Assembly: GCA_964016885.1 (NCBI GenBank)
Contig: OZ024741.1
Span: 300,638,001 to 300,702,000 of the forward strand
From: Eledone cirrhosa
Taxonomy: Eukaryota
Reading direction: 5' to 3'
Length of the DNA stretch: 64,000 bases
Shown piece after piece: positions 55,184 through 55,872 of this stretch. The stretch's first letter is position 1. The number at the start of each line of letters is the position of its first letter. Made by a program: the position numbers and the translations under genes. The notes under the pieces were generated by a model. The model saw only the letters and a program-made list of their open reading frames with translations. It was not told the DNA's origin and made no database searches.

Positions 55184-55872
55184 CTGTGTGGTTACATACA
55201 GACTAGCTGGACACTCACTGTAAAGTGTCCAGTTAAAAACTCAGTACATGTACATATGTATACATGTGTGTATTTATATGCATACTAGTACTTCCGTATA
55301 CATATGTAGATGTACACTTTAACTTAATTGTTTAAGCGTCAGTCATACAAAAGTGAGTTAGAAGCGAAACGAAATTTAATTTCGTTTCGTTATTTGTTTT
55401 TATCGTTTCCGCTGAACCGGTGCGTACAATGACTCACGTCCTATGCAAATTAGTCTACCCACTACTAATTTTCATAGAAAAAGCATATAACGATATGTGC
55501 TTTTACAATTCTCTAGAGAAGCCGGAAGATGGGGTTATATTGCTGATGAGATGTAATAACATCGAAACTAGTCCAATATTCCTGTCTGGCTCTCTGGAGA
55601 ATAGAGGAAATGTGTTTCCTTGAAAACTCGTATGACACTAAAACCCGGTCCGTCTGTGTGGTTACATACAGACTAGCTGGACACTCACTGTAAAGTGTCT
55701 AGTGAAAAACTCAGTACATGTACATATGTATACATGTGTGTATTTATATGCATACTAGTACTTCCGTATACATATGTAGATGTACACTTTAACTTAATTG
55801 TTTAAGCGTCAGTCATACAAAAGTGAGTTAGAAGCGAAACGAAATTTAATTTCGTTTCGTTATTTGTTTTTA
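55184..55872 (+). mobile_element. 470-bp partial tandem with HHR; diverged relative of the ~450-bp family
   Basis: CTGTGTGGTTACATACAG at 55184 and 55654. Shares TATCGTTT, CTCAC..TATGCAAATTAG, TAATTTTCATA and stem III ACTAGT with the array. Confidence 0.82.
55537..55579 (+). ncRNA. Type I hammerhead, canonical
   Basis: ATATTG-CTGATGA-GATG-TAATAA-CATC-GAAA-CTAG-TC-CAATAT. All three stems pair. Confidence 0.92.

Follow-up and report, generated by a model that had tools for sequence, protein, structure and literature searches.

What keeps a POU-factor octamer in place inside a short, hairpin-built repeat that has otherwise diverged? The question is raised by two tandem families, A and B, in a 64,000-nt stretch of Eledone cirrhosa DNA (the window), both of which carry the octamer upstream of a hammerhead ribozyme (HHR). 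A preliminary description had linked this octamer to the distal element of snRNA genes and to the promoter of newt satellite 2, and had proposed selection on ribozyme structure.

The window, a stretch of animal DNA rich in AT and in microsatellites, contains many fragments of Penelope-like elements (PLEs), and reverse transcriptase (RT) and GIY-YIG Pfam matches occur in 2 of the 8 ORFs scanned. The A locus is laid out as (TA)n, 1.47 units and a second (TA)n, and holds one ribozyme only. Its full unit (55184–55653, +; 470 bp, GC 0.37) folds as a chain of hairpins and is followed by a partial second unit (55654–55873, +). The young B locus (56733–63998, minus strand) is interrupted by a PLE. It comprises a 3′-terminal partial unit (56733–56858), a unit at 56920–57360 (octamer 57197–57190, second block 57173–57163, TATATA 57155–57150, hammerhead 57115–57073) and the remainder of the array (61981–63998), with units of ~448–458 bp and an inverted 5′ piece. 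This piece (63647–63998, +) breaks within the ribozyme and ends at AT microhomology, resembling the product of twin priming. An older B locus (39716–40840, −) is ~83% identical.

Blastn aligns A and B at 67.6% identity over 262 nt (E 1.8e-10), and a longer alignment gives 69.9% over 306 aligned columns (z 14.6). Both have a GC content of 0.36–0.37, the window's ORF list contains no ORF of at least 120 aa over their units, and circular MFE folding is strongly stabilised (z −13.4 for A, −6.8 and −8.3 for B). A type I core with its stems and a GC content below 45% are found in both families, and multicopy dispersal in B. Matches to one B unit at 80% likeness were found in 6005 contigs of run X1, in 69,773 reads of X15 and in 50 contigs of X4 (a second organism label), the 0 contigs of X6 being possibly a false zero; B is an abundant dispersed family. 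We consider it very probable that A (470 bp) and B (~450 bp) are homologous hammerhead tandem repeats of the non-LTR retrozyme type.

The ribozyme of A is a type I hammerhead (55537–55579, +) within an extended helix I (55508–55602, +; z −4.6). Its stem III consists of one pair and the palindromic loop ACTAGT, and in both families helix III has one pair, is palindromic and, when tested as a 10-mer, pairs in the dimer alone. Cleavage is predicted after 55573 (GUC) in A and after 57079 (GUA) in B. Rfam gave 0 matches at gathering thresholds, and the HH9 match to the A hammerhead (E 2.9e-4, under the gathering score) comes from the E-value mode, where it stands among 111 mostly microsatellite-driven miRNA matches. 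The A locus has a single HHR; in the B array, canonical cores at 63614 and 57109 enclose altered ones, including CAGACGA cores at 63096 and 62648 and a core with an insertion near 62190. Two consecutive intact ribozymes, the mark of an "active" element in Li et al. 2026, are absent among the window copies, a statement that concerns these copies and not the family.

The claim that stems I and II differ between the families yet stay paired had been made with stem II out of register. [quoted passage not shown] With both stems in register, 12 of 22 positions differ and every change is double; 5 of the 6 double changes keep pairing, as had been claimed, and the sixth, at the base of stem II, does not. 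When 12 substitutions are placed at random, at least 10 of 11 pairs are kept with P 0.0007; given the same changed positions, the value is only 0.065. In seven aligned copies, representing only about three lineages, both partners have changed in 5 pairs, where shuffles give 0.9 (0/500), and among 40 of the 83 genome-wide B variant sites listed, those within the ribozyme fall only in N7 and loop II. These three comparisons support the interpretation that ribozyme structure has been under selection.

The octamer of A (55443–55450) lies in the 12-nt arm TATGCAAATTAG (55442–55453, +), which recurs in B on the minus strand at 57198–57187, 62279, 62737, 63185 and 40733. The second block, TAATTTTCATA, lies at 55466–55476 (+) in A and at 57173, 62254, 62712 and 63160 (−) in B. 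A search thus confirmed both motifs, with their coordinates, in the two families. The distance of 110–125 nt to the cleavage site given for the pair holds for the octamer, whose end lies 123 nt (A) and 111 nt (B) before this site, and not for the second block (84–107 nt). The exact octamer is present in six of the seven aligned copies and is gone from one old copy.

Set against each other, the two blocks match as reverse complements at 11 of 12 positions; the exception is a C×U mismatch, which falls on the C of the octamer and is retained in A and young B. The octamer arm forms the 5′ side of a hairpin and CTAATTTTCATA (55465–55476, +) its 3′ side, or arm 2, whose other strand reads as a one-mismatch octamer, ATGAAAAT. 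Because the blocks are arms of one hairpin, they count as one observation and not as two independent motifs. In circular monomers the ten Watson-Crick pairs common to A and B have pair probabilities of 0.77–1.0, and the local folding z is −4.5 in A and −1.5 in B.

The octamer hairpin has changed far less than the other stems of the unit. Between A and B it differs at 1 of 24 positions, with 0 of 12 pairs altered on both sides, whereas five other homologous helices differ at 26 of 62 positions and 13 of 31 pairs, all double-sided. The contrast (Fisher p 0.0005 for positions, 0.008 for pairs) amounts to essentially one A-versus-B divergence, with registers picked after the data were seen. Within B, two linked substitutions in arm 2, 57167 A>C and 57169 A>T, reach 44–55% of depth across three runs under two organism labels. 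They turn the reverse strand from ATGAAAAT into ATGCATAT, gaining one pair and losing one, and leave both alleles one mismatch from the octamer. No octamer-arm change occurs among the 40 of 83 B variant sites listed. A fixed octamer arm beside a variable arm 2, taken with the helix contrast, supports the conclusion that this arm is probably constrained as sequence and not merely by pairing. Read pile-ups at 57172, 57189, 57192, 57262 and 57013 were rejected as signal since they coincide with AATT or with variants, that is, with RAD cut sites. The octamer also presumably matches the extended POU consensus, which we do not count as support.

Could the block simply be a slowly changed hairpin in a unit built of hairpins, its identity and its octamer both due to chance? 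We regard this as unlikely. A 12-nt identical run is unremarkable by itself at the A/B level of identity (P 0.23), another AT-rich hairpin is likewise little changed (2/16), and a third hammerhead family of the window, C, does without the octamer. Within B, moreover, the octamer shows no greater constancy than the sequence directly beside it: its 12 nt contain 0 variants among the 40 of 83 sites listed (P 0.23), and the whole of 57170–57209 is free of them (P 0.22 as the longest gap). Against chance stand the Fisher values above, the uncompensated arm-2 changes in about half of the B copies and a TATATA at fixed spacing from the octamer. An octamer is expected in a unit of such composition with P ~0.03, and three identical runs of at least 11 nt with P 0.005, though two of these are the paired arms.

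Family C (12789–13272, +; period 313 bp) serves as an internal control. The octamer is absent at the equivalent place in C, in a single hammerhead at 49012 and in seven PLE pLTR hammerheads of the window, and is therefore not a general need of hammerhead repeats, even in this genome. Family C has a U·U at the base of stem II, a longer palindromic helix III and an extended helix I like that of B, and has the word GCTG(A/G)ACCGG in common with A. The single hammerhead (49012–49046, +) has a canonical-looking core and a stem II closed by G-C. One pLTR family (54851 and 42302, +; 17819 and 14576, −) has an HHR-like core CAGAAGA (U4 to A) in 4 of 4 copies, beside which the CAGACGA cores of two B units may be set, and two alternative 3′ ends that recall the two RT start sites of PLEs. 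Repeated words like an HHR core at 24527 and 26227 (−), 28487 (+), 30351 (+) and 30647 (−) probably belong to other pLTR families. A SINE-like stretch at 37644–38138 presumably resembles cephalopod repeats.

Scans of metagenomes yielded neither a relative of A or B nor any match (0) to the exact A/B two-block pattern. A relaxed pattern of octamer and HHR returned 95 loci, of which none passed a strict stem filter and 40 passed a looser one, 36 of these being PLE-type minimal HHRs; no locus is similar to A, B or C at E<0.01. Repeats in 27 loci checked are mostly inverted, not unit-length direct, and the octamer spacing is scattered over 72–99 nt (26 hand-picked values from related families, KS p 0.03). 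Since the search was conditioned on the octamer, enrichment is not measurable and the loci are not counted as support. Seven of them (L004, L012, L038, L051, L064, L076 and L084) form one PLE-type minimal-hammerhead family with the octamer 82–96 nt upstream of the core, and in L004, L051 and L076 it is the arm of a long hairpin; ascertained through the octamer pattern, this family is a lead only.

The repeat ends offer a second view of the hairpin. At all three loci where it can be defined, the RNA-sense 3′ end (55873, ~56733 and ~39716–39718) lies within a few bases of one TTT(T/C)AT and is joined to (AT)n, for which chance gives ~0.003–0.06 (taking 16–25 TAT or 4 TTAT sites per unit). In A it falls inside the TTTTAT of the block TTTTATCGTTT, which in the full unit occupies 55398–55408 (+), is identical between A and young B at 11 of 11 positions and is the putative start of reverse transcription. 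The loose-end read rows listed neither confirm nor deny a fixed 3′ end. A (TA)n target, a partial tandem, an inversion and a fixed internal 3′ end were found at 3 of 3 loci. PLEs are known for a (TA)n bias and for inversions (PMC8557442, PMC4209133), and the common end next to (AT)n supports mobilisation by PLEs, as proposed for retrozymes in PMC7229834 and by Li et al. 2026 (10.64898/2026.07.22.740005).

The octamer hairpin starts 38–40 nt 3′ of this putative RT start, which suggests a rival role as an RNA site: the frozen A-U stem with its kept C×U mismatch would be recognised by a Penelope-type RT, and the octamer match would be incidental. PLE RT begins internally, on AT-rich targets, and needs RNA ~55 nt 3′ of the start; in the anole PLE it starts at +111–118 and needs RNA to +172 (PMC11167929). 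The high predicted folding probability and the exactly one mismatch in both arm-2 alleles are in keeping with such a site. A mismatch that shifts between alleles beside a fixed octamer arm would, however, be odd for a protein that reads shape; no PLE in the window has the octamer block, and the longest conserved run being a perfect octamer (~0.03 per unit) is left unexplained. We consider this reading possible, though doubtful. The interrupting PLE (57371–61980, −), a degenerate element that sits in the B array's (TA)n tract, with two ~335-bp pLTRs bearing an HHR-like motif and an inverted piece, is a putative partner at most, and nowhere in the 64-kb window does a pLTR show detectable similarity to A or B. 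The 3′ end of this PLE, at ~57371, meets (AT)n at a T-rich...CAT junction similar to that of the B locus.

In our preferred reading, to which we give an even chance, the octamer hairpin works as DNA and serves as an internal promoter for Pol II, made up of octamer and TATA. Its candidate parts are the POU-factor octamer, the weaker inverted octamer of arm 2 and a TATA-like box, which in A is CATATAA (55484–55490, +), 41 nt after the octamer start and inside a covarying hairpin (55479–55504). The spacing from octamer start to TATA is 41 nt in A and 42 nt in B, and that of TATATA is unchanged in an alternative B subfamily; TATA-like words are frequent in 64% AT DNA, and the CATATAA of A lies within a hairpin stem. 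Transcription would start ~30 nt past the box, 45–60 nt ahead of the cleavage site, which would place the octamer at ~−70. In H2B and Ig V genes the octamer sits at −50 to −70. Besides snRNA genes, octamers serve H2B and Ig promoters (PMC1800861), and internal promoters are known for newt and schistosome HHR satellites (PMC2220036). A promoter is plausible, and the layout appears to fit a Pol II promoter of octamer and TATA better than one of the snRNA type.

The snRNA or newt-type reading first given to the octamer finds no support here: no human-type PSE was matched, the octamer stands too near the predicted start, and the T-runs are unfavourable to Pol III. If the promoter were nevertheless of the snRNA (SNAPc) kind, like that of newt satellite 2, it would be a compact, H1-like array of octamer, PSE and TATA in which a PSE peculiar to the host overlaps arm 2. 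That the PSEs of invertebrates are unlike those of humans counts in its favour. So do the newt precedent for a snRNA-type promoter in an HHR repeat (PMC2220036) and the compact 84-bp H1 core, which holds octamer, PSE and TATA, is read as RPPH1 by Pol II and III (PMC11340601, PMC3499247) and itself departs from the usual distance of the distal element (DSE), −250 to −170 (PMC9652321). The human H1 and U6 PSE sequences (PMC1790723) match no unit with fewer than 6–9 mismatches, no better than shuffles. On this failed match arm 2 was rejected as a PSE, with the proviso that the host's PSE may differ. Arm 2 is itself octamer-like and polymorphic, and stands 7 nt from the TATA-like box against 18–22 nt between PSE and TATA (PMC1790723). 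Each unit also contains three T4-T5 runs, so Pol III would stop before the second ribozyme. TATA-less Pol II snRNA promoters and full-unit Pol III read-through are thus both unsupported, as judged from the TATA-like box and the T4-T5 runs, and we hold a SNAPc promoter to be very improbable. Two related ~140-bp copies at 54500–54760 contain a word that we take to resemble the human H1 PSE region; the published motif has no match there at 3 mismatches, and the likeness is probably chance.

With an internal Pol II promoter of octamer and TATA, the cycle could run as follows. A transcript begun in one unit would continue through the next, two hammerheads would cleave as a dimer via the ACTAGT palindrome, and a host ligase would circularise the monomer. 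A Penelope-type RT/endonuclease would then nick (TA)n and begin copying at the TTTTAT site, giving partial-tandem inserts with the promoter carried inside each unit. Transcription, cleavage, POU binding, the start site and the helper element are the steps that we infer. A bolder and, in our view, unlikely extension joins the two roles in one 100-nt module, which as DNA would be a promoter of inverted POU sites and TATA and as RNA a hairpin that places the Penelope RT, with octamer-driven internal promoters adopted by hammerhead retroelements in distant animal lineages. Were it true, the hairpin would position the RT at a fixed start 40 nt upstream; the lineages concerned would be newts, the invertebrate-like host here and possibly the minimal-HHR family with L004, L051 and L076; and octamer-driven promoters would explain the ubiquitous high expression of such elements.

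Animal retrozymes rank among the most abundant of circular RNAs, and a native promoter outside newts and schistosomes, like the helper RT, is only hypothesised in the literature consulted. In the available text of PMC7229834 "promoter" refers only to T7, with no analysis of a native promoter or RT start; in that of Li et al. 2026 (10.64898/2026.07.22.740005) neither "promoter" nor "octamer" is found (0 times), nor is an RT start analysed. No description of an octamer promoter, or of a fixed start for the RT, in retrozymes of invertebrates came up in the literature searched, main texts with few subscription papers among them (including PMC6466107, PMC10886601 and PMC6155905). The present locus points to a specific 12-bp element and a specific candidate RT start site. 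An octamer change neutral to pairing would separate the DNA from the RNA function; if the block is due to chance, A and B are ordinary retrozymes.

Among known systems, A and B are closest in anatomy to the non-LTR retrozymes (PMC7229834; 10.64898/2026.07.22.740005), sharing a type I hammerhead in short, low-GC, non-coding, self-paired tandems found with PLEs. The U·U at the base of helix II in B recurs in axolotl HHR_Amex2, and the one-pair palindromic helix III of both families in HHR_Amex1 (PMC7229834); their units are longer than the typical 300–390 bp (PMC7229834; 10.64898/2026.07.22.740005). With PLEs they share (TA)n targets, partial tandems, 5′ inversion, a fixed internal 3′ end and a type I HHR with palindromic helix III (PMC11167929, PMC8557442, PMC4209133), and unlike PLEs they have no ORF. 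Newt satellite 2 is likewise an HHR tandem repeat with a dimer-type ribozyme and an octamer-bearing internal promoter, the latter a candidate in A and B. Its promoter was reportedly found by Coats et al. in 1994 to be of the snRNA type (Pol II), whereas in A and B no human-type PSE is detectable, another octamer-like site stands in inverted orientation, and a TATA-like box lies ~41 nt past the octamer. Like the octamer-and-TATA Pol II promoters of histone H2B and Ig V genes, they have the octamer close upstream of TATA; unlike in these, it is a candidate site within the repeat unit and folds as RNA.
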